The position numbers and the translations under genes were made by a program. Under the pieces are notes generated by a model. The model was not told where the DNA came from and made no database searches. It saw nothing but the letters and a program-made list of their open reading frames with translations. DNA of 64,000 nucleotides, taken from positions 20,230 through 84,229 of the forward strand of contig CAZGRP010000004.1 in assembly GCA_964527995.1 (NCBI GenBank). The letters are read 5' to 3'. Position 1 is the stretch's first letter. Each line of letters begins with the position of its first letter. Positions 5,373 to 47,373 of the stretch are shown here, piece after piece. The DNA is from an uncultured Cytophagia bacterium. GTDB taxonomy: Bacteria > Zhuqueibacterota > Zhuqueibacteria > Oceanimicrobiales > CAZGRP01.

Positions 5373-5446
5373 AAATGCAACTACGAAGGATCATGTTCAA
5401 CAGCATGGACGTGATCGACCTACGAGAGGTAAGGAGGTGAGTGGCA

Positions 5447-5893: not shown

Positions 5894-5989
5894 ACAGGGG
5901 CCGAGTGTGGTTGAGACGAACTCGAGAGGCTGAGTCGGCCTCCTGGGTTGCGGAGTCATTCCGAAGATCTGGCAAGGAGGTGATGTCCG

Positions 5990-6433: not shown

Positions 6434-6456
6434 CGAATGCCTGATCCTCGGTCAGT

Positions 6457-6511
6457 GCAGGCGGGCTTCCTTCCGGCGACAGTCGGATGGATGTCCCGCC
6501 TGTTTTTATTT
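6457..6511 (+). terminator. Putative rho-independent terminator of hsp20 operon
   Basis: Stem gcaggcggg (6457-6465) pairs with cccgcctg (6495-6502), followed by tttttattt (6503-6511). The loop is large. Confidence 0.45.
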
Positions 6512-6595
6512 GCTGCCAGGTCGGCGAGCGAACTTTCAGGCCTCATGCCTGGTTGTATTTCAACAGAGAGAAAACACGGTTGGTTGGTGAAGAGG

Positions 6596-11589: not shown

Positions 11590-12638
11590 GTACGGCCTTG
11601 GAGACGAGCTCGCCGAATGGCCCGGCGACCCTCGGTCTCACCAAGAAAGATTTCGAATCGGACCAGGAGGTTCGCTGGTGTCCGGGCTGCGGCGACTATT
11701 CGATTCTGGCCCAGGTGCAGCGCACGCTACCGGAGCTGGGCATCCCGAAGGAGAGGTATGTGTTCGTCTCCGGCATCGGCTGCTCCAGCCGCTTCCCCTA
11801 CTATATGAACACGTACGGCTTTCATACCATCCATGGCCGGGCGCCCGGAATCGCCTCGGGCATCAAGCTGGTCAATCCGGAGCTGTCGGTATGGGTGGTC
11901 ACCGGCGATGGCGACGGCCTCAGCATCGGTGGGAATCACTTTATCCATCTGATGCGACGCAACCTGGACATCAACGTCATCCTTTTCAACAACCGCATCT
12001 ACGGGTTGACCAAGGGGCAGTACTCACCGACGTCGGAACTGGGCAAGATCACCAAGTCGTCTCCCTTTGGAACGCTGGACTATCCCTTCAATCCGATCAG
12101 CGTGGCCATTGGAGCGGGGGCGACTTTCGTGGCTCGCACCATGGATCGCGACCCGAAACACATGCAGCGGGTGTTGAGGCGGGCAGCCGAGCACAAAGGT
12201 ACCTCTTTCGTTGAGGTCTTCCAGAATTGCAACATTTTCAACGACGGTGCCTACTTCAAGTACACGGAGAAGGACACCCGGCCGGAGACGACGGTCTACC
12301 TGGAGCATGGCAAACCCCTCATCTTTGGCGCCAAGCGTGACAAAGGCATCCTCCTGCGTGGGTTCAAACCGGAGGTCGTGTCCCTGGCCGACGGCAAGCA
12401 TAGCGTCGAGGATCTTCTGGTTCACGATGAAGCGCAGGAGGAACCGACGCTGGCCTTCATCCTCAGTCACATGATCGAAGATCCCACTCTGCCCGTGCCC
12501 CTGGGTGTCTTTCGTGCGGTGGAGCGCATGGTATACGAGGAGGGCGCTTACGAGCAGATCGCCGTGGCCAAAGAGCGCATGGGTGAGCCGGATTTGCAGA
12601 AGCTCCTGGAGTCGGGGGACACCTGGGAGGTGAAGTAG
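11586..12638 (+). CDS. korB: 2-oxoacid:ferredoxin oxidoreductase beta subunit (TPP-binding)
   Basis: WCPGCGDYSIL, GIGCSSR and GDGDGLSIGGNHF TPP motifs. Overlaps korA by 4 nt. Confidence 0.8.
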   Translation: MSTALETSSPNGPATLGLTKKDFESDQEVRWCPGCGDYSILAQVQRTLPELGIPKERYVFVSGIGCSSRFPYYMNTYGFHTIHGRAPGIASGIKLVNPELSVWVVTGDGDGLSIGGNHFIHLMRRNLDINVILFNNRIYGLTKGQYSPTSELGKITKSSPFGTLDYPFNPISVAIGAGATFVARTMDRDPKHMQRVLRRAAEHKGTSFVEVFQNCNIFNDGAYFKYTEKDTRPETTVYLEHGKPLIFGAKRDKGILLRGFKPEVVSLADGKHSVEDLLVHDEAQEEPTLAFILSHMIEDPTLPVPLGVFRAVERMVYEEGAYEQIAVAKERMGEPDLQKLLESGDTWEVK

Positions 12639-12789: not shown

Positions 12790-13890
12790 ATGGAGAGGCA
12801 TGCGATCATCATTGTCGGCTCGGGCCCGGCCGGAGTGAGCACGGCGGCAGCTCTTTACCATCGAGCTCCGCTGCTCGCCGAAGACCTGCTGGTGCTGGAA
12901 AAAGCGTATCACCCGCGCGACAAGCTGTGTGGCGGCGGACTGAGCGGATGGGCGGATACGCTGCTGGCAGAGCTCCGCCTGCAGCCCCAGGTTCCTTCTG
13001 TGCGGATCGAGCAGGTCCGTTTCTATTTGGAAGATGAGCCGATCACGTTCACCCGCAAGAACATGCTGCGTATCGTTCGCCGCAGCGAATTCGACGCTGC
13101 TCTGGTTGCCGGTCTGCGGGAATACGGCGTCGAGGTGCGCGAGGGCGAGCAGGTGGTCGATGTCCACCGTGACGGCAATGCCATCGTCCTGGAAACCCAC
13201 CATCGCACCTACGTGGCGACGGTTGTGGTCGGTGCCGATGGCGCAAAGAGTGTCGTGCGGCGAAAGCTGATTCGCGACTCGCCTTCGCGGGTGAGCCGCC
13301 TGATGGAAGTGCTCGTGCCGGTGGACCCTGATCGCACCCCCGAATTCCGGGAGAAGATGGCTGTGTTCGATTTCCGCCCGAACCGTTGCGGGTTGCAGGG
13401 CTACCTGTGGGATTTCCCGAGCCTGGTAAACGGCAAGCCGCACCTGAACATCGGAGCTTTCGACAGCCGGGTGATCGAAGGGCAAAGGGCGGATATGAAG
13501 GCACTTCTGAGCGACAGGCTGGAGGCACGCGGTCTGGCCAGCGAAGAAGTTCGCTTCGAGGGGCATCCGGAGCGCTGGTTCGATCCACGCGGCGTCTACT
13601 CGGCGGCCAACGTCATTCTGGTGGGCGACGCTGCCGGCATCGAACCGTGGCTGGGTGAGGGGATTTCGATGTCGCTTGCCTACGGTCCGGTTGCGGCCGA
13701 GGCCATCGTGGCCGCCTTCGAGAAGGATGACTTTTCCTTTTCCCACTATCGATCGTACATTCTGCGAAGCTCGCTCGGCCGCGTGCTGCGACGGAATCAG
13801 CGTATTGCCAGATATTTCTACCAGCCCAAGTTGCGTCCTCTGCTTCCGGCTTTTGGAAGAATGCTGAAGTGGGTGTATGAGCACGGATGA
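12790..13890 (+). CDS. FAD-dependent oxidoreductase (geranylgeranyl-reductase-like family)
   Basis: N-terminal IIIVGSGPAGVSTAAAL Rossmann dinucleotide-binding fingerprint. Internal GDAAG motif. Confidence 0.65.
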   Translation: MERHAIIIVGSGPAGVSTAAALYHRAPLLAEDLLVLEKAYHPRDKLCGGGLSGWADTLLAELRLQPQVPSVRIEQVRFYLEDEPITFTRKNMLRIVRRSEFDAALVAGLREYGVEVREGEQVVDVHRDGNAIVLETHHRTYVATVVVGADGAKSVVRRKLIRDSPSRVSRLMEVLVPVDPDRTPEFREKMAVFDFRPNRCGLQGYLWDFPSLVNGKPHLNIGAFDSRVIEGQRADMKALLSDRLEARGLASEEVRFEGHPERWFDPRGVYSAANVILVGDAAGIEPWLGEGISMSLAYGPVAAEAIVAAFEKDDFSFSHYRSYILRSSLGRVLRRNQRIARYFYQPKLRPLLPAFGRMLKWVYEHG

Positions 13891-15500
13891 GTAGCAGATC
13901 TTGTGACATCTTGATCATCGGCGGCGGCATCAACGGCGCCGGCATCGCCCGTGAAGCAGCGGCGCGCGGGCTGTCGGTCATCCTGCTGGAGAAGAGGGAC
14001 TTCGCCTTCGGCACCACCTTCCGGTCGACCAAGCTCATCCACGGCGGACTGCGCTACCTGGAGCAGTACGAGATCGGCCTGGTGCGTGAGTCCCTGCGCG
14101 AGCGTGAAATCCTCCTGAAGCATGCCCCTCATCTGGTGCGGCCGCTGCGCTTCCTGCTGCCGCTCTACAAGGGCGGAAAGTATGGGTTCACCAAGGTCAA
14201 ACTGGGCCTGTTCGCGTACGATCTTCTTTCCTACGACAAAAGCCTGGAGAATCACCGGGCGTTGACCGACGACGAGTTGCTGGCGCTGGAGCCGTCGCTG
14301 AAGCCCGAGAGCCTGGTCGGCGGCTTTCTCTACACCGACTGCCAGTGCCTCTACCCGGAACGCCTGTGCATCGAGACCATCCTGTTGGCGGTCGCGCACG
14401 GCGCCAAGGTGCATCCCTATACCGAGGTCGTTGACGTCATTCGGTCGAGCGAGCGCATCTACGGCGTGGTTGCGCGCGATCAGTCGACCGGCAAGAAACA
14501 CGAATACTACGCCACGATGATCGTCAATGCGGCCGGTCCCTGGGTCGATGAGGTGTGCCGGCTGGTACGTGCCGATATGCCCCGCAAGATCGGCGGCACC
14601 AAGGGCAGCCACATTCTGCTGCCTGGGTTTCCCGGCGCTCCCCGACACGCTGTCTATGTCAGCGCATACCAGGACGGACGGCCCTTTTTCATCATTCCAT
14701 GGCGTGAATACTACTGGGTCGGCACCACCGACATACCGTATGATGGCGATTTGGACCGGGTGCGGGCTTCTACCGAAGAAATCCGCTACCTGCTTGCCGA
14801 GGTCAACCACCTGATTCCGGAGGCCGGGGTCACCGAAGCGGAGGTGCGTTACGCCCTGGCCGGGGTCAGGCCGTTGCCCAATTTGCCTGCGAGCGAGCCG
14901 GGCGAAATCACCCGCAAGCACATGATCCACGACCACGAGGAGCGCGACGGCATCAAGGGAATGGTGTCCATCATCGGCGGCAAGCTGACCACTTATCGCA
15001 GCCTGGCTGAGCAGGTGGTCGACTGGATCGGCGAGCGGATGGAGTGCAGGCTTGCGGCTTCGAAGAGCGCACATGAGCCGCTCTGGGGCGGGGGTGTCGG
15101 CGACTTCGAATCGTACCGGGATGCGGAGGTACGATGGGCCTGCGGCGAGTACCGTATTCCCGTGGACGCGGCGGAAAACCTGCTCGACCTTTACGGCACG
15201 CGCCATCGCGATGTGCTGGCGCTGACGGACGCCGACCCGTGGTTGCGGCAGCCGCTGTGCAAACATCACCCCGACCTCCGGGCACAGGTGGTTTACGCCG
15301 TGCGACGGGAATTCGCACGTCATCTCGCCGACGTCTATTTGCGCCGAACCGGTATCGGCACCTCGGACTGCCGCGGCCTGGACTGCACCGAGGAAGGTGC
15401 CGCCGTGTTGGGGCGCGAGCTGGGGTGGAGCAAGGAGCGCATCGCAGAAGAAATCGACAACTATCGGCAGGAGGTGGACCTGTTGTTTAGCTGGGAGTAG
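13887..15500 (+). CDS. glpD: FAD-dependent glycerol-3-phosphate dehydrogenase (GlpD/GlpA-like)
   Basis: DILIIGGGINGAGIAREAAARG, then LLEK.DFA.GTS.RSTKLIHGGLRYLE, diagnostic of GlpD. Overlaps the upstream gene by 4 nt. Confidence 0.75.
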   Translation: MSSRSCDILIIGGGINGAGIAREAAARGLSVILLEKRDFAFGTTFRSTKLIHGGLRYLEQYEIGLVRESLREREILLKHAPHLVRPLRFLLPLYKGGKYGFTKVKLGLFAYDLLSYDKSLENHRALTDDELLALEPSLKPESLVGGFLYTDCQCLYPERLCIETILLAVAHGAKVHPYTEVVDVIRSSERIYGVVARDQSTGKKHEYYATMIVNAAGPWVDEVCRLVRADMPRKIGGTKGSHILLPGFPGAPRHAVYVSAYQDGRPFFIIPWREYYWVGTTDIPYDGDLDRVRASTEEIRYLLAEVNHLIPEAGVTEAEVRYALAGVRPLPNLPASEPGEITRKHMIHDHEERDGIKGMVSIIGGKLTTYRSLAEQVVDWIGERMECRLAASKSAHEPLWGGGVGDFESYRDAEVRWACGEYRIPVDAAENLLDLYGTRHRDVLALTDADPWLRQPLCKHHPDLRAQVVYAVRREFARHLADVYLRRTGIGTSDCRGLDCTEEGAAVLGRELGWSKERIAEEIDNYRQEVDLLFSWE

Positions 15501-15668
15501 GGTGCATCGATGGAGGATTGGAAATCTGGAGTCCTGGAGTTCTTCCCTGTTGTTTGTTTCATGCCCGTCTTCACTCCATGTCTCCAACTCTCCAACCCTC
15601 CAGCACTCCAACACCCCAGGATAATCCGAATCGCTCCACGATTCTGCTGAACACCACATCGCACCAGA

Positions 15669-17015
15669 ATGCAAACGATGAACTACCGTGCCACCTACCG
15701 CTGCTTCGCTGGATGCCACGGCGAGTACGATCTCACCGAAATCATCTATCGTTGTCCGCAATGCGGCGGGCTGCTGGAGGTCCATCACGACCTTGAGCGC
15801 CTGCGGCAGCGCCCGGCCGATGCCTGGAAGGAGCTCTTCGACGCCCGCTGGATGCGCACGCAGTGGCCCTATGGCAGTTCGGTATGGGGTAAGAAGGAGA
15901 TTGTCTGTCCGCGCGTCCACAATGACCACATCGTTTCCACCTTTGAAGGCGGCAGCAACCTGTTCCGGGCCGACCGCCTCGGCAGGGAGATCGGGGTCCC
16001 GGATCTGTGGATCAAACAGTGCGGCAACAGCCACACCGGCTCCTTCAAAGACCTGGGGATGACGGTGCTGGTATCGATGGTGCGGCAGATCATCGCCGAG
16101 GGGGCGCCGGTGCGGGCTGTGGCCTGCGCTTCGACGGGCGATACCTCTGCCTCGCTCGCCGCTTACTGCGCCGCCGCAGGTCTGCAGGCCGTGGTGATCC
16201 TGCCGCGGAACAAGGTGTCCCTGGCCCAACTGATCCAGCCGATCGCCAACGGTGCCCTGACGCTGGCCCTGGATACTGATTTCGACGGCTGCATGCGCAT
16301 CGTCCAGCAGTTGACTCAGTCGAAGGAGATCTATCTGGCCAACTCGATGAATTCGCTGCGCATCGAGGGGCAAAAGACCGTGAGCATCGAGATCGTGCAG
16401 CAGTTCGATTGGGAAGTGCCCGACTGGGTGATCGTGCCCGGCGGCAACCTGGGGAACACGGCGGCGCTCGGCAGGGGCTTTCTCATGATGCGTGATCTCG
16501 GCCTGATCGACCGCCTGCCGCGACTGGTGTGCGCCCAGGCGGAACGGGCCAATCCGCTCTACGAGAGCTTTGTGCGCGGGTTCACGGAGTTCCGGCCGAA
16601 GAAAGCCGGACCTACGCTGGCAAGTGCCATTCAGATCGGCGACCCTGTGAGCGCGAACAAGGCTATCCGCGTCCTGAAAGAGCTCGACGGTCTGGTGGAG
16701 CAGGCCAGCGAAGACGAGCTGGCCAATGCCGCGGCTCGCGCCGACCGTGTGGGGCTGTTCACCTGCCCGCACACCGGCGTGGCGTTGGCTGCTTTGTTCA
16801 AGCTCGTCGAACGGGGCGAAATCAAGTCCCGAGACCGCGTTGTGGTGATCTCGACTGCAAACGGGCTGAAGTTCACCGACTTCAAGATTCGCTACCACGA
16901 AGGGCGGCTGCCGGATGTCCAGCCGCACTACGCCAATCGGCCTGTAGAATTGCCGGCGGACTACGACGCCGTGGCAGCGACCATCTGGGAGTGGACAGGA
17001 GCGGAGGCGACCTGA
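15669..17015 (+). CDS. thrC: Threonine synthase
   Basis: YRCPQCGG zinc-ribbon-like N-terminus, SFKDLGM PLP-lysine motif, STGDTSAS. Confidence 0.8.
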
Positions 17016-17223: not shown

Positions 17224-19827
17224 ATGCCTGCACAACCGGAGGGAGCGATGTGCCATTTCAAAGGTATCCGTTCCACCTGGCGGCGCCTTGCCGCCGGTGT
17301 TGTGGCTGCACTTCTTTTCACCAGTCCTTCCCCTCTGCTGTTCGCGCAAATCACCTTCACCGAAGTGATGTTCGACCCCGCTGGACCGGAGTCGTCGGAC
17401 GAGTTTGTCGAGATCCTCAACCTGAGCGGCACCGACAGCGTCGATCTCAGCGGCTGGTGGTTCAGCGACGGCCGTGCCGTCGATTCCCTGCACGATGCCG
17501 GCAACGGCCTGGTCCTGGCCCCGGGGCAATATGCGCTGATCCTGGATCCAAGCTATTTCGGCAAGTCGACGTCCTACGACGCACTGATTCCCCAGGGTGC
17601 GCTGGTGTTGACCCTGGACAACGCCACTTTTGGCAGCGGCGGCCTCAGCAACAGCGTGGCGCGCACCCTGGTGCTCGGCGACGCCGCCGGCGATACGGCC
17701 TCGGTCTATACCTACTCCCTGGGCAACGCGCCCGGTCACTCGGACGAGAAGATCGATCCCACCGGCGCCAATACACCCGAAAACTGGGCGGATAGTCGCG
17801 TGTTCAACGGTACGCCCGGCGGTCCGAACAGTGTTACCCCTCCGGAGGTCGATCTGGCGCTGGGTCCGGCCGCCCCACGGTGGCAACCCGAACGGCCGCG
17901 CCAGGGCGACATCGTGGAGATCGAGATGGAGGTGAGCAACTTTGGACTTCGACCGGTGCCAGGCTATCGCCTGAGCCTCTACGACGACGCCGATCGCGAC
18001 TCGGTGGTTTCCGACGCCGAGCTGGTTCGGTCGGTGGAGGCCGGACCGCTGTCGCCGGGAGCCACGCAGCGTCTGTTTCTCGAATGGGATCGGCCTGACG
18101 CAGGAGGTCACTCTCTTCTGGCTCGCCTCGAAGCAGACGGCGATCTTCGCGCGGAAAACGACACGCTCTGGTTCCAGTTGATGATCGGCTTCCCGCCGGC
18201 TGCGCTGGTGATCAACGAATTCATGTACCGGCCGTTCAGCGGCGACCCGGAGTGGGTCGAGCTTTTCAATCCAGGCCCAAAGGCGATCGATCTGCGTGGC
18301 TGGCGGCTGAGTGACGCCGACGTCGACCGTCCGATTTCTCTGACCGAAGAGATGCTGACCGTCGCTGCCGGCAGCTACCAGGTGGTTGCCTCGGCCGTCC
18401 CTCTGAGCGCCGCATTCGCCGGCCGCTCCGACAGTGTGCTGGTGCCGTCCGGTCGTTTTCCTACCCTCAACAATACGGAAGATGAAATCGTGCTGTTCGA
18501 TCCACTGGGCTTCACCATCGACAGCGTCGCTTACACTTCCTCCTGGGGAAAGGAGACAGGCCGATCGCTGGAGAAGATCTGGTTCGAACGGAGCGGCACG
18601 GATCCCGGCAACTGGGCAGCAAGTCGTGACTCGCTCGGAGCGACGCCGGCCCGGCTCAACAGCGTCAGCCCGAGGAGCTTCGACGTCGCCGTCCGCGCCA
18701 GCGAAATCCTCTTCTCACCCGAACAGCCGGCCGCAGGCGAGGCCATTCTCCTGACAGTGCCGGTGCGCAACCTGGGACGGCTGGCGGTCGATGGTGTCGA
18801 AGTCATCGTTTTTGACGACCGCGACGGAGACCTGCGGCCTGACCCGCAGGAGGAGCTGGCGCGCCGGTCCCTGACACAGCCGCTCGAAAGCGACGAGTTG
18901 GAGAATGTCGAGTTCGATCTTGGTTCGCTCTCTTCCGGGTGGCACCTGTTGCTGATCGAAGTCCGCCTTCCGGCAGATCAGCGAATTGAAAACAACCTGG
19001 CGAAGGTCGAATTGGCCGTTGGCTATTCTGCCCTGGCGGTGGTGGTCAACGAGGTCATGTTCGATCCCCAAACGGGGCAGAGTGAGTGGGTCGAGCTGTA
19101 CAACCGCAGCCCGGAAGCAGTCGACTTGCGGAACTGGCAACTTGGGGATGCCACGGGGACTGCTCCTCTTCCCCAGCGGTCGCTGCGGCTGCCGGCCGGC
19201 GGCTTTGCCGTTCTGGCCCCCGATTCGTCTGTGCTCGGAAGGTACGGAGGTTTCGAGGGTCTTCTCGTCACGTTCAGAAACTTTCCGGCATTGAACAACA
19301 ACGCCGACAGGGTGGAGATCTGCGACATGCACGGTTTCCGCATCGACGCCATGGCGTACCGCGGTGCCTGGGGTGCGGGTCCGGGGATTTCACTGGAGCG
19401 CCTCCATCCCGATCTCGCCAGCGACGACAGCACCACCTGGTACCCGAGCGTCGCTCCGGCAGGGGCGACTCCTGGCAGGGTGAACAGCATCTTCATCCAG
19501 GTGAAACCTGCGACCACGACGCTGGAGGTTCATCCGAACCCCTTTTCGCCGGATGGCGACGGTGTCGAAGATTTCGTCGTCGTGAGTTTTCGCCTGCCGC
19601 AGCCGACGGCGAGTGTCAATCTGAAAATCTACGATATGCGCGGGCGACTCGTGCGCCAATTGCTCAACAATGCCGCGACGGGGGCCGAACGGCAGGTGGT
19701 ATGGGACGGCCTCAACGGCCGCGGCGAACCACTGCCGACGGGCATTTACATCGTCTACCTCCAGGCCATTCGCCCGCAGAGCGGCTTCTTGCGGGCGGTC
19801 AAGAAAACGGTCGTTCTGGCTCGCTAG
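17224..19827 (+). CDS. Secreted protein with three lamin-tail-domain (LTD) repeats and a T9SS/FlgD-Ig-like C-terminal domain
   Basis: Signal peptide (AALLFTSPSPLLFAQ). Three repeats of the ITEVMFDP...EFVEL-N form (at aa ~45, ~330, ~610). C-terminal LEVHPNPFSPDGDGV...IYIVYL resembles T9SS sorting or FlgD Ig-like domains. Confidence 0.7.
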   Translation: MPAQPEGAMCHFKGIRSTWRRLAAGVVAALLFTSPSPLLFAQITFTEVMFDPAGPESSDEFVEILNLSGTDSVDLSGWWFSDGRAVDSLHDAGNGLVLAPGQYALILDPSYFGKSTSYDALIPQGALVLTLDNATFGSGGLSNSVARTLVLGDAAGDTASVYTYSLGNAPGHSDEKIDPTGANTPENWADSRVFNGTPGGPNSVTPPEVDLALGPAAPRWQPERPRQGDIVEIEMEVSNFGLRPVPGYRLSLYDDADRDSVVSDAELVRSVEAGPLSPGATQRLFLEWDRPDAGGHSLLARLEADGDLRAENDTLWFQLMIGFPPAALVINEFMYRPFSGDPEWVELFNPGPKAIDLRGWRLSDADVDRPISLTEEMLTVAAGSYQVVASAVPLSAAFAGRSDSVLVPSGRFPTLNNTEDEIVLFDPLGFTIDSVAYTSSWGKETGRSLEKIWFERSGTDPGNWAASRDSLGATPARLNSVSPRSFDVAVRASEILFSPEQPAAGEAILLTVPVRNLGRLAVDGVEVIVFDDRDGDLRPDPQEELARRSLTQPLESDELENVEFDLGSLSSGWHLLLIEVRLPADQRIENNLAKVELAVGYSALAVVVNEVMFDPQTGQSEWVELYNRSPEAVDLRNWQLGDATGTAPLPQRSLRLPAGGFAVLAPDSSVLGRYGGFEGLLVTFRNFPALNNNADRVEICDMHGFRIDAMAYRGAWGAGPGISLERLHPDLASDDSTTWYPSVAPAGATPGRVNSIFIQVKPATTTLEVHPNPFSPDGDGVEDFVVVSFRLPQPTASVNLKIYDMRGRLVRQLLNNAATGAERQVVWDGLNGRGEPLPTGIYIVYLQAIRPQSGFLRAVKKTVVLAR

Positions 19828-22155: not shown

Positions 22156-22980
22156 ATGAGCGAATTGCGGCAGAAGATCGAGGAAGCGGGCGCTTTTCTG
22201 AAGTCACAGACGGCCCTCCAACCTGAAATCGGCATCATCCTTGGGACGGGTCTTGGTGCGCTCGCCGAAGAGATCGACAAGGAGAGCGTGGTGTCGTACA
22301 AGGACATTCCTCACTTTCCGTTGTCCACCGTCGAAAGCCACGTCGGCAGGCTCATCTTCGGCCATCTGGGCGGAAAGCGGGTGATGGCCATGCAGGGTCG
22401 CTTTCACTACTACGAAGGCTACTCGATGCAGCAGATCACCTTCCCGGTGCGGGTGATGAAGCATCTCGGAGCCCACACCCTTTTGGTCTCCAACGCCGCA
22501 GGTGGCCTGAATCCGCTCTTTAGCGCCGGCGATCTGATGATCATCGTCGATCACATCAACCTCCTCGGCGACAATCCGCTCATCGGTCCCAACGACGACG
22601 CCCTGGGGCCACGTTTCCCCGACATGTCCGAGCCGTATACTCGCAGCCTCATCGAGCTGGCCGAGCAGGTGGCCCTCGACGAGAAGCTCCGTGTCCAAAA
22701 GGGGGTCTACGCCGCGATGACGGGGCCAAATCTCGAAACCCGCGCCGAATACCGTTTCCTGCGCCTGATCGGTGCGGACGTGGTCGGCATGTCGACGGTG
22801 CCCGAGGTCATTGTCGCCGTCCACAGCGGCATGAGGGTGCTCGGCCTGTCGGTCATCACCGATATGTGTCTGCCAGACGCCCTCAAGCCTGTGGTCATCG
22901 AGGAGATCCTGAAAACCGCCGGTGAGGCCGAGCCACGCCTGACGCGGTTGATGGCACGTGTGGTCGAGCGTATGGAGTGA
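22156..22980 (+). CDS. Purine nucleoside phosphorylase (PunA/PNP family I)
   Basis: GIILGTGLG, then SxxxHxGRLxxG, then [10 protein letters not shown], then [12 protein letters not shown] motifs. Confidence 0.75.
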
Positions 22981-23012
22981 CCGGAACCGCGAGGAAGGAT
23001 CGCAAGCTTCGA

Positions 23013-26168
<3,156 letters not shown>

Positions 26169-26216
26169 GACGGAGCACGTATCAAGAGGCCACTGTACTC
26201 TGCGACGGAGGGCATC

Positions 26217-26594
26217 ATGACCAAGAAAGACCTCGACTACTTTAGGCATCTGTTGATGCAGAAGCGCCAGGAGGCGCTGGACGAACTCGGGCACTTCAAA
26301 GAGTCCGGCATGAGCTCCACATCCAAGGAGGCTGCCGGAGAACACTCTGCCTACACGTTCCACATGGCCGACCAGGGCACCGACACCATGGAGCGCGAGA
26401 AGGCGGCGTTCTTCGCAACTCACGAAGGCCGCTATCTCTATCATCTGGACCAGGCACTGGAGCGGATCGAGTCGGGAACCTACGGGATTTGCCAGGAATG
26501 CGGCAACGAGATCAGCCGTGCCCGCCTCGAGGCGGTTCCCCATGCGCGCCTGTGCATCGAGTGCAAGTCCAAGGAAGAGCAGAACACGACGTAA
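26217..26594 (+). CDS. DksA/TraR-family C4 zinc-finger protein
   Basis: C-terminal CQECGNEIS...CIEC four-Cys finger. Conserved position between ileS and lspA. Confidence 0.75.
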   Translation: MTKKDLDYFRHLLMQKRQEALDELGHFKESGMSSTSKEAAGEHSAYTFHMADQGTDTMEREKAAFFATHEGRYLYHLDQALERIESGTYGICQECGNEISRARLEAVPHARLCIECKSKEEQNTT

Positions 26595-26612
26595 GAGACG
26601 GGCAGGAAGGCA

Positions 26613-27095
26613 GTGCGAGTGCTGAGCTATACCGCCTTCGTTATCCTCCTCGATCAGATGGCGAAGGTCCTGGTTGTCAAAATCTTTGCCCTGGGTGAGT
26701 CGATCCGCATCCTCGACGATGTCGTGCGCTTCACCTACATTGAGAATCCCGGCATGGCGTTTGGCATCCGAGTGGGAAGCAGAGGTTTTTTTACGGTCTT
26801 CTCGGCTCTGGCGAGCTTGGCGATTCTGGTGTATCTGGTGCGGATGAGGCACGACAGTTTCTATTCGCGCCTGGCGCTGGCGCTGATTCTCGGAGGAGCC
26901 ATCGGCAACTTGCTGGATCGGATGATGCGCGGTCAGGTGGTCGATTTCATCGATGTCGGTTTCGGTACCACCCGCTGGCCTGTCTTCAACGTCGCGGACA
27001 TGGCCGTCACCATCGGGATGATTCTCTTGATCGCCCAGGTCCTCTTTGAGCGCGAACCAAAAGAAGGGGGCGCCCGGGCGGTGGAAGGGGAGTAA
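26613..27095 (+). CDS. lspA: Lipoprotein signal peptidase II
   Basis: GAIGNLLDR and FNVADMAV catalytic-Asp motifs. GTG start. Confidence 0.8.
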   Translation: MRVLSYTAFVILLDQMAKVLVVKIFALGESIRILDDVVRFTYIENPGMAFGIRVGSRGFFTVFSALASLAILVYLVRMRHDSFYSRLALALILGGAIGNLLDRMMRGQVVDFIDVGFGTTRWPVFNVADMAVTIGMILLIAQVLFEREPKEGGARAVEGE

Positions 27096-27181
27096 GCGCT
27101 GCCGCTGCCAGCCGCCTTCTGTCGGAGATGCCAGATCGTTGAGCCACGATTTCGCTCGTTCCAAACACCCGCCGGGCTCAA

Positions 27182-28198
27182 ATGGAGGCTAAGCGAATCA
27201 TACGGGTCGTTGTTCCGGAGGCTCGCGCCCACGTCCGCGTCGACAAGTTCCTTGCCGAAGAGATTCCCACCCTGTCACGGTCCCGCATTCAAAAGCTCAT
27301 CGAAGAACATTGCGTGATCATCGATGGCGAGCCTGCCAAAGCCAGCAGGCCGGTGCAAGCGGGCGAGCACATCGAAGTACGCATCCCGAAGCCGCAGAAA
27401 CTGGAGATCCTTCCGGAACCGATCCCACTGGACATTGTCTACGAAGACGAGTATCTTATCGTGGTCAACAAACCGGCGGGAATGGTGGTCCACCCTGCGT
27501 TTGCCAATTACAGTGGCACTCTGGTCAATGCTCTGCTGCACCACTGCCGCTGGCTTTCAGGCATCGGTGGAGTTGAGCGCCCCGGCATCGTCCACCGGCT
27601 GGACAAAGATACGTCCGGCCTGCTTGTCGTTGCCAAAGATGATGTGACGCATCGGGCTCTGTCGCAGCAGTTTGCCGAAAAGACCAGCGAGCGCGAATAC
27701 TGGGCCGTTGTCTGGGGACATTTTCGCCGGAAGTCGGGACGTATCGATGCGGAGATCGGCCGCAGTCCCAAGGACAGGACGCGAATGACCATCCAAAGCG
27801 GCGGCAAGGTCGCGATCACCCACTACGAAGTGCTGGAGGAGTTCCATCTCTGTACGCTGGTGGCCTGTCGCCTCGAAACCGGCCGCACCCACCAGATTCG
27901 CGTCCATCTTTCCCACATTGGCCATCCTGTTTTCGGAGATGCCACCTATGGCGGCCGGGGCCGGCGGGTGACGGGTCTCAGCAGGCATGACCGCGAGCTG
28001 GCGGTCGAGTGGCTTCGCAAGATGCCGCGGCAGGCTCTGCATGCCAAAACCCTGGGATTTGTGCATCCGGTGAAGGGAGAGAAGATGCGGTTTGAAAGCG
28101 AGCTCCCCGAAGACATGCGCCAACTGCTGGCGGAACTTCGACGGGCGACATCCGTAATCAAGGAGCGCAGCGACGAACCGCGGGAGGTGAAATCATGA
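27182..28198 (+). CDS. rluD: 23S rRNA pseudouridine synthase, RluD family
   Basis: N-terminal S4-like domain. HRLDKDTSGLLVVAK catalytic motif. Classical ileS-lspA-rluD context. Confidence 0.8.
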   Translation: MEAKRIIRVVVPEARAHVRVDKFLAEEIPTLSRSRIQKLIEEHCVIIDGEPAKASRPVQAGEHIEVRIPKPQKLEILPEPIPLDIVYEDEYLIVVNKPAGMVVHPAFANYSGTLVNALLHHCRWLSGIGGVERPGIVHRLDKDTSGLLVVAKDDVTHRALSQQFAEKTSEREYWAVVWGHFRRKSGRIDAEIGRSPKDRTRMTIQSGGKVAITHYEVLEEFHLCTLVACRLETGRTHQIRVHLSHIGHPVFGDATYGGRGRRVTGLSRHDRELAVEWLRKMPRQALHAKTLGFVHPVKGEKMRFESELPEDMRQLLAELRRATSVIKERSDEPREVKS

Positions 28199-29811
28199 GT
28201 CGGCAATTTCAATGGACGGCCGGCCTGGCCTTGTGCCTCGTTTGGGTTGGAGCAGCCCTTGGCTGGGCGGCGCCTCGAGTGGGTCGTCCCGCAGAGGATC
28301 TCCGCGTGGCGCTCGATCGAGATCAGGACTTGGTGCAGGCCGCAGAGCAAAAATACCTGCAACCCGGGCATGAACACAAGGTAGTGCGGTACGAGGGGTA
28401 CACTGCCATCGCCGCCGACACCTACATTGATGGCGACGTCGTCGTTTTGCGCGGCGACATCGAGATCGAGGGTGAGATCGGCGGCACCGTCATTGCCATT
28501 CTCGGCGATGTCATCGTAGGGCGCTGGGGTGTGATCCACGGGGACGTGGTGAGTGTCGGCGGCGAGGTGCATGTGCACCGGCGGGCGGTCGTGGATGGCG
28601 ACGTGGTCGAGGCGACCGTGGAAGCTTTGCGGAGTGGCAACGGCGAAGAATCGCGCCGGGTACGCCGGCAGAGGTGGGGTCGAGGCGCTGGCCGCCGAGT
28701 GTGGAGTCGCGAGTTCTGGGACGAGGACCAGCAGGTGGTCCTGCTGCGCTACAACCGCGTCGAGGGCCTTTTTGCCGGCCTGCGACTGCCGCGCAACTTC
28801 AACCCGCGCCAGCAGGTGGTGGACTTCGGTCTGTATGGCGAAGCCGGCTACGGCTTCCGCAGCAAGGCCTGGCGCTACCGCCTGGGCGGCGAATTCTCGG
28901 CGTTCTCGGGTCCTCCTCGCGGCGTCCCCTTCCTGATGACGCTCGGCGCCGAGGTCCACGATCTCACCGACACGCAGGACCGCTGGATCATCCCCGAGAT
29001 GGAGAATTCGCTGTCGGCGTTCCTGTTCAAAAGAGACTACATGGACTTCTACCGTCGCAGTGGCTGGAGTATCTATGTGACCCAAAGAGTCGCCGGAGTG
29101 CTGTCGCTCACTGGCCGATTTGCTTCCGACGACTTCTACTCACTTCCCAATCGTACCAACTGGGCGCTGTTCGGTGGCCCGGATTTCCGACCGAATCCTG
29201 CCATCGACGAAGGCCGCATCATCAGCTTGCGCGGCGAGCTTCGCCTCGACACCAGGAACTCGCGCCAGCATCCGCACCAGGGTTGGCTCATCCAGGGTCT
29301 GGCCGAGCGCGCCGGTGGAGTGTTCGGAGGAGAATACGACTTCCAGCGCTACCTGGTGGATCTCCGGCGCTACCAGCCTTTGACTCTCGGCGACCGGCTG
29401 GACGTTCGCCTGCGGGTGGGGACCGCAAGAGGACCGCTGCCGCGACAGTACATGTACGACCTCGGTGGCCTGTCGACCTTGCGTGGCTACGGCTTCAAGG
29501 AATTCACCGGAGATCGTTTTCTGCTGGGCAACGTGGAGTATTGGGTCAATGCAGACCAGCGGCTCGGTGGTGCCTGGCTGTTCGGCGATCTGAATCTGGT
29601 TTTTCTCTTTGATGCGGGCCTGGCGTGGTTCGCCGACGATCCCTCCAGCCCCCTGGCTGATTTCTCCAATCTCGGGAACCGCAACATCCGCACGAGTGCA
29701 GGACTGGCGATTGCCAGCGACAGCGGCAATTTTCGCATTGAACTTGTCAAGCGTCTCGACCGAGGTGGCGAGAGGGTCAGCGTCCGGTTTCGAGCCAGTC
29801 GGCCCTTCTGA
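28195..29811 (+). CDS. Outer-membrane protein: N-terminal bactofilin-like beta-helix repeats fused to a C-terminal Omp85/TpsB (bacterial surface antigen) beta-barrel
   Basis: Signal peptide. DGDVVVLRGDIEIEGEIGGTVIAILGDVIVGRWGVIHGDVVSVGGEVHV matches polymer-forming/bactofilin-type repeats. C-terminal YMYDLGGLSTLRGYGF, GNVEYW, FLFDAG and a terminal F resemble BamA/TpsB barrel strands. Confidence 0.6.
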   Translation: MSRQFQWTAGLALCLVWVGAALGWAAPRVGRPAEDLRVALDRDQDLVQAAEQKYLQPGHEHKVVRYEGYTAIAADTYIDGDVVVLRGDIEIEGEIGGTVIAILGDVIVGRWGVIHGDVVSVGGEVHVHRRAVVDGDVVEATVEALRSGNGEESRRVRRQRWGRGAGRRVWSREFWDEDQQVVLLRYNRVEGLFAGLRLPRNFNPRQQVVDFGLYGEAGYGFRSKAWRYRLGGEFSAFSGPPRGVPFLMTLGAEVHDLTDTQDRWIIPEMENSLSAFLFKRDYMDFYRRSGWSIYVTQRVAGVLSLTGRFASDDFYSLPNRTNWALFGGPDFRPNPAIDEGRIISLRGELRLDTRNSRQHPHQGWLIQGLAERAGGVFGGEYDFQRYLVDLRRYQPLTLGDRLDVRLRVGTARGPLPRQYMYDLGGLSTLRGYGFKEFTGDRFLLGNVEYWVNADQRLGGAWLFGDLNLVFLFDAGLAWFADDPSSPLADFSNLGNRNIRTSAGLAIASDSGNFRIELVKRLDRGGERVSVRFRASRPF

Positions 29812-29858
29812 CGGTCGGGCCAGACTGAGGCTTGCGGAGGGAACATAGGAGGGCACAA

Positions 29859-30662
29859 ATGAGACGAGGCTTTGCGCTGGCGTCGGCAAGCATCGTGCTG
29901 GCAGTGCTGCTCGCTGGATGTGGCCCTGTCGGCGGTCGCGAGGAGTATCGCGAGTCGTTCCGCCAAAGCTATTCCTTGCAACGCGGGGGGCAGGTTTCGC
30001 TGAAGAACGTCAACGGTCGCGTCTCCGTCAGTACGTGGGACAAGGATGAGGTGCTGGTAGAGGCGGAGAAGATGGTTCGCGCATCGAGCGTGCGTGCGGC
30101 CCGCAGGGCGGCGAAGCGATTGCGCATCGAGGTGGATGATCGTCCTTCGGCCGTCATCATTTCAACCCGCTATCCTCAGGTGGGCAGTCTTTTGTCACGT
30201 TTTCTAGGTGGCGGCATGAGCTTGCAGGTCCGCTACCGCCTGACAGTTCCGCGTCAGGTCGACCTGAGCGTTGGGCTGACGAACGGCAGGATTGAGATCG
30301 AGGGCGTGCGTGGCCGCGTCGAAGCTGAAACAGTCAATGGCAGTGCCAGGCTGAATGATTGCTCCGGATCGGTGCGCGGGGAGACGGTGAACGGCGCGGT
30401 CCGAGCCAGGGTCGTCGCGCTCGATCCGTCGGACTACATCGAAATGCACACCATCAACGGCAGTGTTCACCTCTACCTGCCAGAGGATGTCGGTGCCGAG
30501 ATCAAAGCCCGGACCGTAAACGGCCGCGTGCGTCTTTCAATCCCGAACGCGGAGGTGCGTAAGAGCAGCCGCAAGCGCCTGGAGGCGCAGCTCGGCGGCG
30601 GCGGCGCCCGCATCGACTTGAGCGTCGTAAACGGTAGCATCGAGATCCGGCCGCTGCGTTGA
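29859..30662 (+). CDS. DUF4097-family beta-helical lipoprotein (putative adhesin)
   Basis: Signal peptide with LLAGCG lipobox. Repeated TVNGxxR/INGSV beta-helix rungs. AGGAGG 5-6 nt before the ATG. Confidence 0.6.
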   Translation: MRRGFALASASIVLAVLLAGCGPVGGREEYRESFRQSYSLQRGGQVSLKNVNGRVSVSTWDKDEVLVEAEKMVRASSVRAARRAAKRLRIEVDDRPSAVIISTRYPQVGSLLSRFLGGGMSLQVRYRLTVPRQVDLSVGLTNGRIEIEGVRGRVEAETVNGSARLNDCSGSVRGETVNGAVRARVVALDPSDYIEMHTINGSVHLYLPEDVGAEIKARTVNGRVRLSIPNAEVRKSSRKRLEAQLGGGGARIDLSVVNGSIEIRPLR

Positions 30663-30698
30663 CAGAAGGAGCACAAGGGGGAGGGATCAAAACTGGGA

Positions 30699-30729
30699 CC
30701 GCCGGGGCTGGAGGACGAGGCCCCGGCGG
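30699..30729 (+). terminator. GC-rich hairpin after DUF4097 gene (possible terminator, no U-tract)
   Basis: ccgccggggc-tggaggacga-gccccggcgg, a perfect 10-bp stem. Confidence 0.35.
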
Positions 30730-31164
30730 CTCAGGTAGGGAGGGGTGGATGGAACCCGACGACATGTAGACGAGGCTGTCCAAGACATCTACCTTCCAAA
30801 TGAACTGCATTCTCTACTCTCTGGACCGCCTCGTCTTGCCAGGCAACGGGTGATGGCCGGCCATCGAACCCCTGATGTCGGCCTCGACACTTCCACCGCG
30901 CCCATTCCCAATAGCATCTGCACACCTTACCATCAAGTACCATGCCACCCCGCTGATCATCCCCCAGGCCCCGGTGGGCATCTACGTAAGCGACTGTTTT
31001 CAAAAGGACGTTTGTACGTCGATCTGGGTCAGCATGCATGCGTGTCGGATGGCGTGTGTGTCTCGGGCTGAGACAGGCGCGCGTCACCCTGGCGGGCGCT
31101 GATCTTTTTCTTGACTTTATTCTGATTATATCTTAAACTCAGCCTGAAAGCCAGGCGGCCACCT

Positions 31165-32538
31165 ATGCATCCGACATCGATCCAGCATTGCAAGAACCAC
31201 CCTCGGCGCATCGCCAGGCGTAAGTGTTTTCGTTGTGGCGAGGCGCTCTGCCCCGAGTGCCAGATACGCGCACACCACCACTTTTTCTGCGGCCAGACGT
31301 GCCGTTTTCTTTTCCTGGCAGAGCGCTCGGTAGATCGCGCCGGCGCTCCCTTCCGGGTTTTTTTTGCGAAAGTCCGACGGGCTGGCCCCGGCCTGGCCCG
31401 TACACTTCTACCGTATTCGCTGCTGGCCGCTGGGGTTGTGCTGGCTCTGGCCTGGTCGAGGCAGCTTCGAAATGATGTTGAGCAGCTGCGCCGCGATCTC
31501 CAGGACGTCCGCACTGCCAGGGCCCACGATGGCGCTTCCGCCGGCACTGCCGGCAAGCTGACGATCACCCAGCCCAGCCAGGGCGCCATGGTGACCCTCA
31601 ACCGGGTCACCATCGAGGGGGAGGCGGAGCCCAACAGAATCATCAGTCTTTCGTCAGGCGACCGATTGCTCGCCGTCACCCTGGCCCGCAAAGGGCGCTT
31701 CCAGTTCAAAGACATCCCTGCCCGCCGGGGACGGAATCGCCTCGAGGTGCGCGCCATCTCGTCCGACGGCAAGGCGACGATGCTGCAGATCCTGGAATTC
31801 GTCTACAACAACCCGACCGTTGCCTACCTGGCACGAAACTTCACGCGCGGCGATCCGGGGCGCCCGCTGGTGGCGTTGACCTTCGACGGTGGCTCCGTGG
31901 CGAACGTCACTCCCGAGATTCTGGATATTCTGGCAGAGAAAGGCGTCCGGTGCACGGTCTTCCTCACAGGCGAGTATATGACCCGCTTCCCCGATTATGT
32001 CAAGCGCATCGTCGCCGACGGCCACGAGGTCGGCAACCACACCTGGTCGCATCCACATCTCACCACCTACGAGGAGAGCCGCACACAGCAGACGCGGCCG
32101 GAGGTCGATCGCGCTTTCGTGCAGGGCGAACTGCGGCGCACAGCCGACTATTTCCGCCAACTGACCGGCGCCGAGATGCAGCCGTTCTGGCGCGCGCCCT
32201 ACGGCGAGCACAATCTGGAGATCCGCGAGTGGGCGGCCGAACTCGGGTACCGTCACATCGGGTGGACCCACGGCCGCGACTGGCAGCAAAGCATGGACAC
32301 GCTCGACTGGGTGGCCGATCCGACCTCGCCCGCCTATCACTCGGCCGATGAGATCTACGATAAGATTCTCGCTGCGGCGCAACGGGAGCCGAACGGACTC
32401 AACGGTGCCGTCATCCTCATGCACCTGGGCTCGCTGCGCAACGGAGATTTTCCGCATCGAAAGCTCCCCGGTCTTATCGATCAGCTACGTGAGCTGGGTT
32501 ACGAATTCGTTCCGGTCTCCGAGCTGGTCGATCGCTGA
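31165..32538 (+). CDS. Polysaccharide deacetylase (NodB-homology) family protein with N-terminal Cys-rich zinc-finger and one TM segment
   Basis: N-terminal CFRCGEALCPECQ...FFCGQTC. TM helix LLPYSLLAAGVVLALAW. C-terminal ALTFDGG, HEVGNHTWSHP NodB motifs. Confidence 0.7.
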   Translation: MHPTSIQHCKNHPRRIARRKCFRCGEALCPECQIRAHHHFFCGQTCRFLFLAERSVDRAGAPFRVFFAKVRRAGPGLARTLLPYSLLAAGVVLALAWSRQLRNDVEQLRRDLQDVRTARAHDGASAGTAGKLTITQPSQGAMVTLNRVTIEGEAEPNRIISLSSGDRLLAVTLARKGRFQFKDIPARRGRNRLEVRAISSDGKATMLQILEFVYNNPTVAYLARNFTRGDPGRPLVALTFDGGSVANVTPEILDILAEKGVRCTVFLTGEYMTRFPDYVKRIVADGHEVGNHTWSHPHLTTYEESRTQQTRPEVDRAFVQGELRRTADYFRQLTGAEMQPFWRAPYGEHNLEIREWAAELGYRHIGWTHGRDWQQSMDTLDWVADPTSPAYHSADEIYDKILAAAQREPNGLNGAVILMHLGSLRNGDFPHRKLPGLIDQLRELGYEFVPVSELVDR

Positions 32539-37413: not shown

Positions 37414-38502
37414 ATGGCGAAAAAGCTACCGCGGATGGACAAGGGAAACAGCAAGCCTGGCAGTGTGCGTACCGCACTCTTGCTGTGCGGCGGCGGCCTG
37501 GCAGGCGCCATGTACGAAATCGGCTGCCTGCGTGCTCTCGATGAATCGTCGGGAGGTTCCTTCACCACCGAGCGGGTGGACTTCTACCTCGGGGTCAGCG
37601 CCGGGTCGGTGATTTCGGCCCTTCTTGCCAATAACATTTCCCCACGCGATCTTTACGACGCCGTCTGCGACTCCAATCATCCGGTGCATTTTCGCCGTGA
37701 TGACATCTACGGCTTCGATTGGGGTGAATTCGGCCGCTGTGTCGGCGGGGTGATGGCGCGTACACCCCGGCTTTTGCGTTACTTTTGGAAGAACCGATCC
37801 TGCTTCTCGTTCTCCGACGCCCTCGACTCTCTCCAGGAGTTGCTCCCCTCCGGCCTGTTCTCCTTGCGGAATCTGGAGGCCTTCATGCGCAGGCTGCTGA
37901 CCCAACCCGGGCGGACCAACGACTTCCGCCGGCTGCGAAAAAAACTGTTCATTCCTTCTTTCGAGCTCGACACGGGAGAACGCTGGGTGTTCGGCACCGA
38001 GGGTCTGGATGACGTACCGATCTCGGCGGCGGTGGCAGCTTCTTCCGCCCTGCCGATGTTTTTCCAGCCCTTTCCGGTGCGTGGCCACGATTTCGTAGAC
38101 GGTTCCAGCGGCCATGTGGCCCACGAGGATGTCGTGGTGGAAAGAGGGGCCAACCGTCTGGTGATCATCAACCCGACCGTGCCGGTTCGCAATGATCGCC
38201 AGACGCTGTGCATCCCCACCTTCGACGGCCACTGCGCCACCCTGCGGCGCAAGGGGCTGACCTTCGTGAGCGATCAGAGCCGCCGCATCGGTACTTGCAC
38301 GCGCCTGGAGCTGGCTCTGGAACGACTGCGTGCCAGCAGACCGGAGATTGAGATTGTGTTGATCCAGCCGGTTCCACACGAGGCAACGATGTTTTTGGCC
38401 AACGTCATGAGCTACGAGGCCCGGCAGACACTGCTGCGGTACGGCTATCAAACCACCGGGGAGTTGCTGTCCCGGCGTGCCGCCAACCTGCCACGGTTGT
38501 AG
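37414..38502 (+). CDS. Patatin-like phospholipase
   Basis: LLLCGGGLAGAMYEIGCL oxyanion motif, GVSAGS nucleophile-Ser motif, and a DGG-type Asp near aa 230. Confidence 0.75.
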   Translation: MAKKLPRMDKGNSKPGSVRTALLLCGGGLAGAMYEIGCLRALDESSGGSFTTERVDFYLGVSAGSVISALLANNISPRDLYDAVCDSNHPVHFRRDDIYGFDWGEFGRCVGGVMARTPRLLRYFWKNRSCFSFSDALDSLQELLPSGLFSLRNLEAFMRRLLTQPGRTNDFRRLRKKLFIPSFELDTGERWVFGTEGLDDVPISAAVAASSALPMFFQPFPVRGHDFVDGSSGHVAHEDVVVERGANRLVIINPTVPVRNDRQTLCIPTFDGHCATLRRKGLTFVSDQSRRIGTCTRLELALERLRASRPEIEIVLIQPVPHEATMFLANVMSYEARQTLLRYGYQTTGELLSRRAANLPRL

Positions 38503-47012: not shown

Positions 47013-47373
47013 GGGGACGACATGGCTTCGACGGGGGTCGAGGAGCCAAGAACTGCATGCCGAGGTTTCCTGGAACCTCGTAAAACACCAGGAGCCCAAA
47101 TTAAACGCAGACAATTATGCGTATGCCCTGGCTGCCTAATTAATTAGTGCAGCCCGCCTTGCCTGGCGAGGCCACCTAGCCAGGTTCGGCGCCGGTAGCG
47201 GTGGCTAGCCAGCAGCTTCTGCCTGAGGGCTGCAGGCGAAACTCAATCGGGCTGGCTTTGAAACAGCTTTGCCTGTTGTGCTGTTCAAAGCGAGATAGAA
47301 CAACAGACTAAGCATGTAGAGGTTCTTGGGGACTGGCCTTCGGACGTGGGTTCGATTCCCACCGTCTCCACCA
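47013..47373 (+). ncRNA. ssrA: tmRNA (SsrA)
   Basis: 5' GGGGACGACATGGCTTCGACGGG...GCATGCCGAGG...CCTCGTAAAA. Tag ORF gca gac aat tat gcg tat gcc ctg gct gcc TAA, encoding ...ADNYAYALAA. 3' tRNA-like arm GGGTTCGATTCCCACCGTCTCCACCA. Confidence 0.85.

Follow-up and report, generated by a model that had tools for sequence, protein, structure and literature searches.

A β-helix–Omp85 outer-membrane protein without POTRA domains and its toastrack gene neighbours

We analysed a 64-kb stretch of DNA from an uncultured bacterium (the window: 64,000 nucleotides, positions 20,230 to 84,229 of contig CAZGRP010000004.1, assembly GCA_964527995.1) and focus here on two adjacent genes: open reading frame (ORF) A, which encodes a 538-residue outer-membrane protein joining an exported bactofilin-type β-helix to a 16-strand Omp85-superfamily barrel, and ORF B, which encodes a predicted lipoprotein of the DUF4097, or toastrack, type. 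The barrel family, both β-helix folds and the automatic database labels are known; the combination, its breadth and the toastrack partnership appear to be undescribed, and literature searches on Omp85 with bactofilin, DUF583 or BamA, and on DUF5686, returned no description of the architecture. The pair is probably an envelope module of a kind not yet described, not an autotransporter that secretes itself. The features of the two genes, in window coordinates, are as follows.

28195..29811 (+): ORF A, gene of the 538-aa β-helix–Omp85 outer-membrane protein (from the ORF list)
28195..28272 (+): putative signal peptide, residues 1–26 (MSRQFQWTAGLALCLVWVGAALGWA/A), from sequence inspection and a modelled helix at residues 2–25
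28291..28356 (+): conserved α-helix, residues 33–54 (consensus RDRxLxxAAERRYL), a helix in both predicted models
28381..28614 (+): right-handed bactofilin-type β-helix, residues 63–140
28615..28737 (+): charged, Arg/Trp-rich flexible linker, residues 141–181 (about 40 residues), with no POTRA fold
28738..29808 (+): 16-strand Omp85-superfamily β-barrel, residues 182–538 (AlphaFold2 model, Foldseek, Pfam)
29431..29514 (+): loop L6 between strands 11 and 12, residues 413–440, with L429-R430-G431-Y432
29605..29619 (+): strand 13 motif, residues 471–475, family consensus F-x-D-x-G, LFDAG in the ORF A protein
29859..30662 (+): ORF B, gene of the 267-aa DUF4097/toastrack lipoprotein (AGGAGG site, Pfam, gene callers)
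29910..29921 (+): lipobox L18-A19-G20-C21 of ORF B (ctc gct gga tgt)

Independent gene calls on the Joint Genome Institute (JGI) metagenome contig Ga0256750_1001893, which is 12.4 kb long and identical to this part of the window, also give ORF A and ORF B. The start ATG of ORF A shares bases with the stop codon of the preceding rluD gene (ATGA), and a GGGAGG sequence lies 7 nt upstream. Judged by eye, the N-terminus of the protein reads as a signal peptide: it contains a basic residue and a long hydrophobic core, and GWA/AP is a small-x-small site.

An AlphaFold2 model of the ORF A protein, built on 45 homologues with a mean pLDDT (predicted local distance difference test score) of 80.9, places sixteen strands between residues 182 and 533, and the modelled barrel matches those of BamA, TamA and Sam50 in the PDB with E values of 4e-12 to 1e-9 (Foldseek). 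In Pfam, Omp85 (PF01103) covers residues 341–517 at 53.8 bits against a cut-off of 24, and DUF5686 (PF18939) covers residues 183–334 at 40.2 bits, just above its cut-off of 39.2; the latter match takes in only positions 334–481 of the 669 in that model and corresponds to the first half of the barrel. A preliminary description of this DNA, made from the sequence alone, had proposed a bactofilin-like β-helix behind a signal peptide, fused to an Omp85/TpsB-type barrel with a terminal Phe, and the analysis supports a fusion of such a helix to a true 16-strand barrel of the Omp85 superfamily.

The first barrel strand region of the protein carries the conserved motif YNRVEG. Loop L6 is the most conserved long segment (mean conservation 0.81), with G424, G425, L429, K435 and G439 invariant, and its L429-R430-G431-Y432 stretch is the (V/I/L)RG(F/Y) lid-lock motif of Omp85 proteins. 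On strand 13, a nearly invariant F at position 471 (L471 in the ORF A protein) is accompanied by a nearly invariant D at 473 and an invariant G at 475, and the C-terminal Phe538 is invariant in the 45 homologues. The L6 motif, the F-x-D-x-G motif and F538 are the hallmark motifs of the superfamily. Conservation reaches 0.67–0.91 in the predicted cap loops L1, L3 and L4, lies at 0.2–0.5 in the predicted periplasmic turns and is 0.35 in the linker, one of the parts of the protein that are conserved least. Because the extracellular cap loops are conserved and the predicted periplasmic turns poorly so, the barrel is likely to be closed by a dome of the Omp85 type.

No POTRA family matches ORF A at E ≤ 1 in Pfam. 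In the model the barrel is preceded by a helix, the β-helix and a disordered linker, and the gap between the β-helix and the first strand is too small for a POTRA fold. Patatin, ShlB (PF03865) and PF08479 likewise give no match at E ≤ 1 in Pfam; weak ShlB matches occur in some relatives, where they overlap the Omp85 match. BamA identity was ruled out by a TIGR03303 score of 29.3 bits against a cut-off of 297 (NCBIfam) and by the missing POTRA domains. A search with the full protein against PDB chain sequences produced no match, and the same search with a 745-aa relative produced noise only. The ORF A protein is a true member of the Omp85 superfamily without POTRA domains; it is not BamA, not TpsB and not a type Vd protein. 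The PlpD-like (type Vd) topology put forward in the preliminary description is not upheld, with POTRA and patatin both absent and the segment between helix and barrel disordered.

When modelled alone (residues 39–150; pLDDT 90.5), the N-terminal module folds into a helix, a β-helix of about 4.5 turns and a short C-terminal helix; the full-length model also has a short helix after the β-solenoid, at residues 142–146. The β-helix spans about 78 residues rather than the roughly 130 first estimated. Its turn glycines (G87, G93, G97, G104, G116, G123 and G135) are invariant, and E51 and L55, at the end of the preceding α-helix, are nearly invariant across homologues. As modelled, the helix of residues 33–54 probably caps the N-terminal end of the β-helix, and with helices probably capping both of its ends, end-to-end polymerisation would be prevented. 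Residues 149–177 of the linker, 29 in all, have a pLDDT below 50.

Three lines of evidence bear on the type of this β-helix. Foldseek on the isolated module was uninformative; structural matches with a low root-mean-square deviation are right-handed helices, and for left-handed enzymes with hexapeptide repeats the deviation rises to about 11 Å. When PDB sequences were searched with a profile of the module, the two bactofilins came out first and second (E values of 0.01 and 0.35). The Bactofilin family (PF04519) covers residues 70–128 of ORF A at 20.1 bits, below the cut-off of 27.9, and the 745-aa relatives P0004, P0060 and P0040, which have three such helix segments, pass that cut-off with 42–50 bits. 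On account of these structural matches, the profile ranking and the Pfam scores of the 745-aa relatives, we assign the module to the right-handed bactofilin type; the left-handed rungs read from the sequence earlier are not supported. The profile checks envisaged at that time came out mixed: PF01103, and PF13349 on ORF B, exceed their cut-offs, whereas POTRA and PF04519 do not.

The preliminary description also took bactofilin folds to be normally cytoplasmic, a premise that proves too narrow. The same helix type follows a signal peptide or membrane anchor in many other proteins, and in proteins without a barrel it is also found joined to multi-pass membrane domains, so that an extracytoplasmic bactofilin-type helix is not unique to ORF A. 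Four such proteins (P0247, P0255, P0268 and P0272) combine a signal peptide or membrane anchor with repeated bactofilin-like β-helix segments and a multi-pass membrane domain.

The ORF A protein has 412 homologues in a set of 5.8 billion proteins, and all 120 of those listed have E ≤ 1.5e-97, which places the architecture far beyond chance. Where the listed homologues are named at all, they are called 'DUF5686 family protein', 'BamA/TamA family outer membrane protein' or 'cytoskeletal protein CcmA'; the two closest relatives come from metagenomes and share 72% and 69% identity with the ORF A protein. In a scan that took one genome per species, 80 loci turned up in candidate division KSB1, Calditrichota, Latescibacterota, Ignavibacteriota, Bacteroidota, metagenome-assembled genomes labelled Chlorobi, and LCP-89, the best of them only 43% identical to the ORF A protein. 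The fusion itself, for which a search of other genomes had been suggested, recurs widely: the N-terminal unit of helix plus β-helix can be recognised in 65 of 88 loci, Bacteroidota and Ignavibacteriota included, and of 1.84 billion cluster representatives a profile of this unit matches 7707 at E ≤ 1e-3 and 1078 at the stricter threshold of E ≤ 1e-10. The β-helix–Omp85 family is large and old, and lies within the Fibrobacteres–Chlorobi–Bacteroidetes (FCB) group.

Other N-terminal modules occur on the same barrel clade, namely LamG plus HEAT, HEAT alone, DUF4252, a peptidase S49 fragment, and the β-helix plus CBM48. With so many different modules carried by one clade, the fusion site behaves as a swappable adaptor position. 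In three proteins (P0258, P0290 and P0254) the bactofilin-like β-helix is followed by one to three glycan-binding modules of the CBM48/AMPK type and then by the Omp85 barrel; with glycan-binding modules placed here, one may ask whether this part of the protein is exposed at the surface. The 745-aa class with the triple helix is represented by loci L006–L008, which have a gene for a VanZ-plus-LamG protein upstream (5128–6654) and one for a LiaF-like toastrack protein (10937–11797) two genes downstream, past an epimerase gene.

The barrel gene is followed by a characteristic set of neighbours. We called toastrack neighbours with hidden Markov models built from the neighbour genes of barrel loci, and Pfam divides them into three classes: LiaF-like_C/Toast_rack_N proteins of about 290 aa, DUF4097 proteins of about 265 aa and DUF4097 proteins of about 325 aa. 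Of 84 non-redundant loci, 34 have a toastrack gene downstream of the barrel gene on the same strand, as a rule 4–190 bp past the barrel stop, and only one has such a gene upstream. Among the loci that could be assessed, such a neighbour accompanies 32 of the 51 barrels with a β-helix and one of the 15 without (Fisher p = 2e-4); once the barrels are clustered at 50% identity, the counts become 15 of 17 clusters with a β-helix and none of four helix-less clusters, plus one truncated gene. The pairing persists through insertions and rearrangements among barrels only 32–45% identical. Its form varies by lineage (LiaF-like only; LiaF-like and DUF4097; LiaF-like and two DUF4097; a 583-aa protein and DUF4097; DUF4097 only), which argues against simple frozen synteny. 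The analysis shows a conserved, directional and helix-specific adjacency of the barrel gene to genes of exported toastrack proteins, and the earlier suggestion that the two genes form one system gains support from this conservation of gene order in diverged relatives.

Every toastrack partner bears an N-terminal export signal. A lipobox is clear only in ORF B and its close relative in locus L002, which has the same LAGC; in most other partners the signal peptide is a plain one. The LiaF-like partners form a narrow family, with 67 matches in the same lineages, and the DUF4097 family is broad, with 3862 matches in Acidobacteriota and others. The branch of KSB1 and Calditrichota has one to three toastrack genes per set, on the strand of the barrel gene and in many cases separated from it by very few bases. 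The two closest relatives of ORF A keep a LiaF-like gene beside the barrel gene; no LiaF-like gene is present in the 64-kb window, where the set is reduced to a single DUF4097 lipoprotein. No fusion of a toastrack domain to an Omp85 barrel occurs among the listed homologues of either partner or of the barrel. We considered that the β-helix might itself be a relative of the toastrack fold that stacks with its partner, and rejected this, since hhalign against the three partner profiles gave probabilities below 1%. In loci of the Calditrichia type, a conserved exported protein of 583 aa without a Pfam match replaces the LiaF-like gene between the barrel and DUF4097 genes (L036:3231-4982; also L026, L035, L050, L083 and L086).

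The longest frame of ORF B, 29832–30662, opens with a TTG at 29832. The most likely start codon of the gene is the ATG at 29859, which follows AGGAGG (29847–29852) by six bases, so that the protein would begin MRRGFALASASIVLAVLLAGC. Its signal peptide, MRRGFALASASIVLAVL-LAGC21, fits the lipobox pattern [LVI][ASTVI][GAS]C, and ORF B is a predicted lipoprotein; DUF4097 (PF13349) matches residues 144–273 at 29.9 bits against a cut-off of 22.9. The neighbouring β-helical DUF4097 lipoprotein of the preliminary description is supported by this match and by the lipobox. The 3862 homologues of ORF B are mostly annotated as DUF4097. Identification as LiaX or LiaG was rejected, both scores being far below the NCBIfam cut-offs (LiaX 46.2 against 350 bits; LiaG 40.6 against 285).

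Upstream, ORF A follows a run of housekeeping genes. The order in the window is ileS, a dksA-like gene, lspA, rluD, ORF A and ORF B, all on the plus strand, and the conserved ileS-dksA-lspA-rluD backbone precedes the barrel gene, with its lspA and rluD part at 26613..28198. These two genes, and the element that follows ORF B, are located as follows.

26613-27095 (+): lspA (Pfam match)
27182-28198 (+): rluD (Pfam match)
30693..30734 (+): GC-rich stem-loop, 30 nt past the ORF B stop (RNA fold of -40.7 kcal/mol)

Among related loci, rluD lies immediately upstream of the barrel gene in 31, and lspA lies nearby in 15. One barrel clade has a second copy of lspA, the gene of signal peptidase II, directly upstream of the barrel gene (L003:7284-7757; L009, about 7101–7577; also L011, L012, L013 and L014). 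In L003 this lspA-barrel pair stands behind an RND efflux operon, outside the ileS-lspA-rluD context, as if the two had moved together. The linkage of lspA to the barrel gene is a second association, weaker than the toastrack pairing.

The stem-loop downstream of ORF B has a z score of -2.8, none of 200 shuffled sequences folds as well, and it has no U-tract; it probably marks the end of the transcription unit. A scan of positions 22500–31400 for consensus promoters and terminators gave results no better than shuffled sequence. About 430 bp of non-coding DNA separate the stem-loop from the next gene, at 31165, and the whole gap after ORF B measures about 500 bp. That gene (31165–32538, plus strand) encodes a polysaccharide deacetylase with an N-terminal B-box-like zinc ribbon (C-x2-C ... 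C-x2-C) and a predicted membrane segment; the same deacetylase comes after the barrel-toastrack module in L018 and is found near the 745-aa class in L007 and L008.

Elsewhere in the window, a full-length tmRNA gene lies at 47013–47373 on the plus strand (Rfam RF00023, 204.7 bits). An 867-aa protein (17224–19827, plus strand) carries three Lamin Tail Domains and, at its C-terminus, a sorting domain for type IX secretion (CHU_C / FlgD_ig), which fits an organism of the FCB group with a type IX secretion system. For a 1036-aa ORF (13818–16928, minus strand), Pfam gives nothing at E ≤ 1e-5. The window also encodes a patatin-like phospholipase (37414–38502, plus strand; 362 aa) that stands alone, without a barrel, and is unrelated to ORF A.

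Omp85 proteins are core machines that build and populate the bacterial outer membrane, and to our knowledge nearly everything known about them involves POTRA domains. Non-POTRA subfamilies have been catalogued, namely WD40-Omp85, Metallo-Omp85 and noNterm (Heinz & Lithgow 2014, PMC4104836), and noNterm paralogues are found in Leptospira (PMC11358297). These are the closest in kind to ORF A, with which they share a 16-strand barrel behind a non-POTRA N-terminus that is assumed to be periplasmic by default; a bactofilin-type β-helix is not among the N-termini listed in either source, and the ORF A family, unlike the listed subfamilies, has a conserved adjacent family of partner genes. Compared with DUF5686 (PF18939), ORF A lacks the N-terminal two-fifths of the model and has the β-helix there instead.

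The exported partners invite comparison with TpsB/FhaC and TpsA (type Vb secretion), in which the gene of an Omp85-superfamily barrel also adjoins that of an exported β-helical protein; in TpsB/FhaC, as in ORF A, an N-terminal helix precedes the periplasmic module. TpsB, however, has two POTRA domains, and TpsA is large and has a two-partner secretion (TPS) domain, whereas the partners of ORF A are toastrack proteins of 265–330 aa with no match to TPS or haemagglutination domains. Bactofilins such as BacA (2N3D) and the Thermus bactofilin (6RIA/6RIB) are cytoplasmic and form polymers, whereas the domain in ORF A follows a signal peptide, is joined to a membrane barrel and has helices on either side that, in the model, probably cap it. 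PlpD, of type Vd, has a patatin passenger with a single POTRA domain between passenger and barrel, and export of the passenger has been demonstrated. Like ORF A, it places an N-terminal non-POTRA domain ahead of an Omp85-type barrel (PMC4104836), but ORF A has neither the patatin nor the POTRA domain. LiaF, LiaG, LiaX and YvlB share DUF4097, LiaF-like_C or Toast_rack_N domains with ORF B and the other partners; no LiaI-LiaF transmembrane domain, PspC or two-component system accompanies ORF B nearby, unlike in the Lia and phage-shock-protein (PSP) systems. ORF B and the other partners are predicted to be exported or lipid-anchored in a diderm, whereas a comparative study holds toastrack domains to be mainly intracellular (PMC11237479).

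Based on the above data, we propose that the β-helix remains in the periplasm, in the place usual for POTRA domains, and serves as a rigid docking arm for toastrack proteins in a barrel-plus-accessory complex, a reading that we favour while giving it slightly less than an even chance. The arm would bring the toastrack proteins encoded beside it to the periplasmic face of the outer membrane, and the resulting complex would follow a logic like that of BamA and its lipoproteins, or of WD40-Omp85 proteins when these are read as BamA-BamB fusions. The barrel would keep an Omp85-type gate activity toward a client, as suggested by the strong conservation of the first-strand region, the L6 lid-lock and the C-terminal strand; candidate clients are the toastrack proteins or lipoproteins generally. 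The N-terminus of Omp85 barrels is periplasmic by default, as in BamA, TamA and FhaC. We prefer a periplasmic β-helix for this reason, because the fusion position accepts unrelated modules, all-α HEAT repeats included, and because the conservation of the cap loops matches that of closed Omp85 domes. Surface display of the β-helix, as suggested earlier for this protein, would run counter to that default topology and is not supported.

Several observations nonetheless weigh against a periplasmic docking arm. The surfaces of the β-helix are variable, its turn glycines alone being invariant, and we found no conserved binding face on it. The LamG and CBM48 variants are typical of surface glycan-binding proteins and fit surface exposure better, and a linker of about 40 residues has the length needed to pass through a barrel. 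Family members in Bacteroidota and Ignavibacteriota have no toastrack neighbour, so the partnership is not universal; gene order is correlative in any case, and the loci are phylogenetically related. Toastrack domains, finally, have been regarded as mostly intracellular, with no mention of an outer-membrane context (PMC11237479), and the pairing has no precedent.

It is possible, if doubtful, that no specific partnership exists: ORF A would be a POTRA-less Omp85 paralogue with a structural periplasmic spacer, and its toastrack, rluD and lspA neighbours would reflect an order inherited within one superclade. The adjacency of rluD and lspA does belong to a widely conserved housekeeping backbone, the window has lost the LiaF-like gene that its closest relatives keep, and the members in Bacteroidota and Ignavibacteriota manage without toastrack neighbours. 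An inherited order accounts poorly, however, for a toastrack adjacency that is so directional (34 downstream against one upstream), that is restricted to barrels with a β-helix and that survives insertions and rearrangements at 32–45% barrel identity.

We consider it similarly unlikely that the barrel is a dedicated exporter of the two-partner or Slam-like kind, which would move toastrack proteins or lipoproteins across or into the outer membrane while the β-helix receives or templates the client. The barrel gene stands directly upstream of genes of exported β-helical proteins, as in tpsB-tpsA and slam-substrate pairs, and ORF B is a predicted lipoprotein; the barrel gene follows lspA in the ancestral order, a second lspA stays upstream of it even in the different context of L003, and the first-strand region, L6 and the C-terminal strand are strongly conserved. 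Set against this, the barrel has no POTRA domain, the partners show neither a motif nor a domain of the TPS type in Pfam and are for the most part not lipoproteins, and nothing indicates that toastrack proteins are exposed at the surface. Slam barrels, moreover, belong to a different family, DUF560. The broad DUF4097 family also occurs in other phyla, and in the two such loci that we examined no Omp85 or other outer-membrane barrel gene lay beside the DUF4097 gene.

A self-displaying autotransporter of the type Vd kind, whose β-helix would pass through its own barrel and then stay on the surface or be released, is improbable: the order of passenger and barrel and the β-helical passenger do resemble type V systems, the disordered linker could span the pore and some relatives carry LamG or CBM48 modules common on cell surfaces, but the protein has neither POTRA nor patatin, the helix is small and apparently capped by helices at both ends in the model, the conserved L6 and cap loops indicate a closed dome, and the all-α HEAT repeats in the same position of sister proteins suit a periplasmic adaptor better.

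Whichever of these readings applies, a large, conserved subfamily of the FCB group has exchanged POTRA domains for a fold hitherto known as an element of the cytoplasmic cytoskeleton while keeping the catalytic hallmarks of the barrel, its genes are accompanied by those of a defined group of exported partners, and bactofilin-type helices are used outside the cytoplasm. The gene pair bears on the role of POTRA-less Omp85 paralogues and on the part that toastrack proteins play at the outer membrane of diderms. A bolder and rather unlikely extension is that the β-helix replaces POTRA as the receiver of clients in an unrecognised outer-membrane pathway of the FCB group, in which the barrel would export or assemble β-helical clients, lipidated clients or both at the cell surface. 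Such a pathway would be a new branch of type V or Slam-like secretion and, given the recurrent linkage to lspA, a candidate for the machinery that exposes surface lipoproteins in the FCB superphylum.

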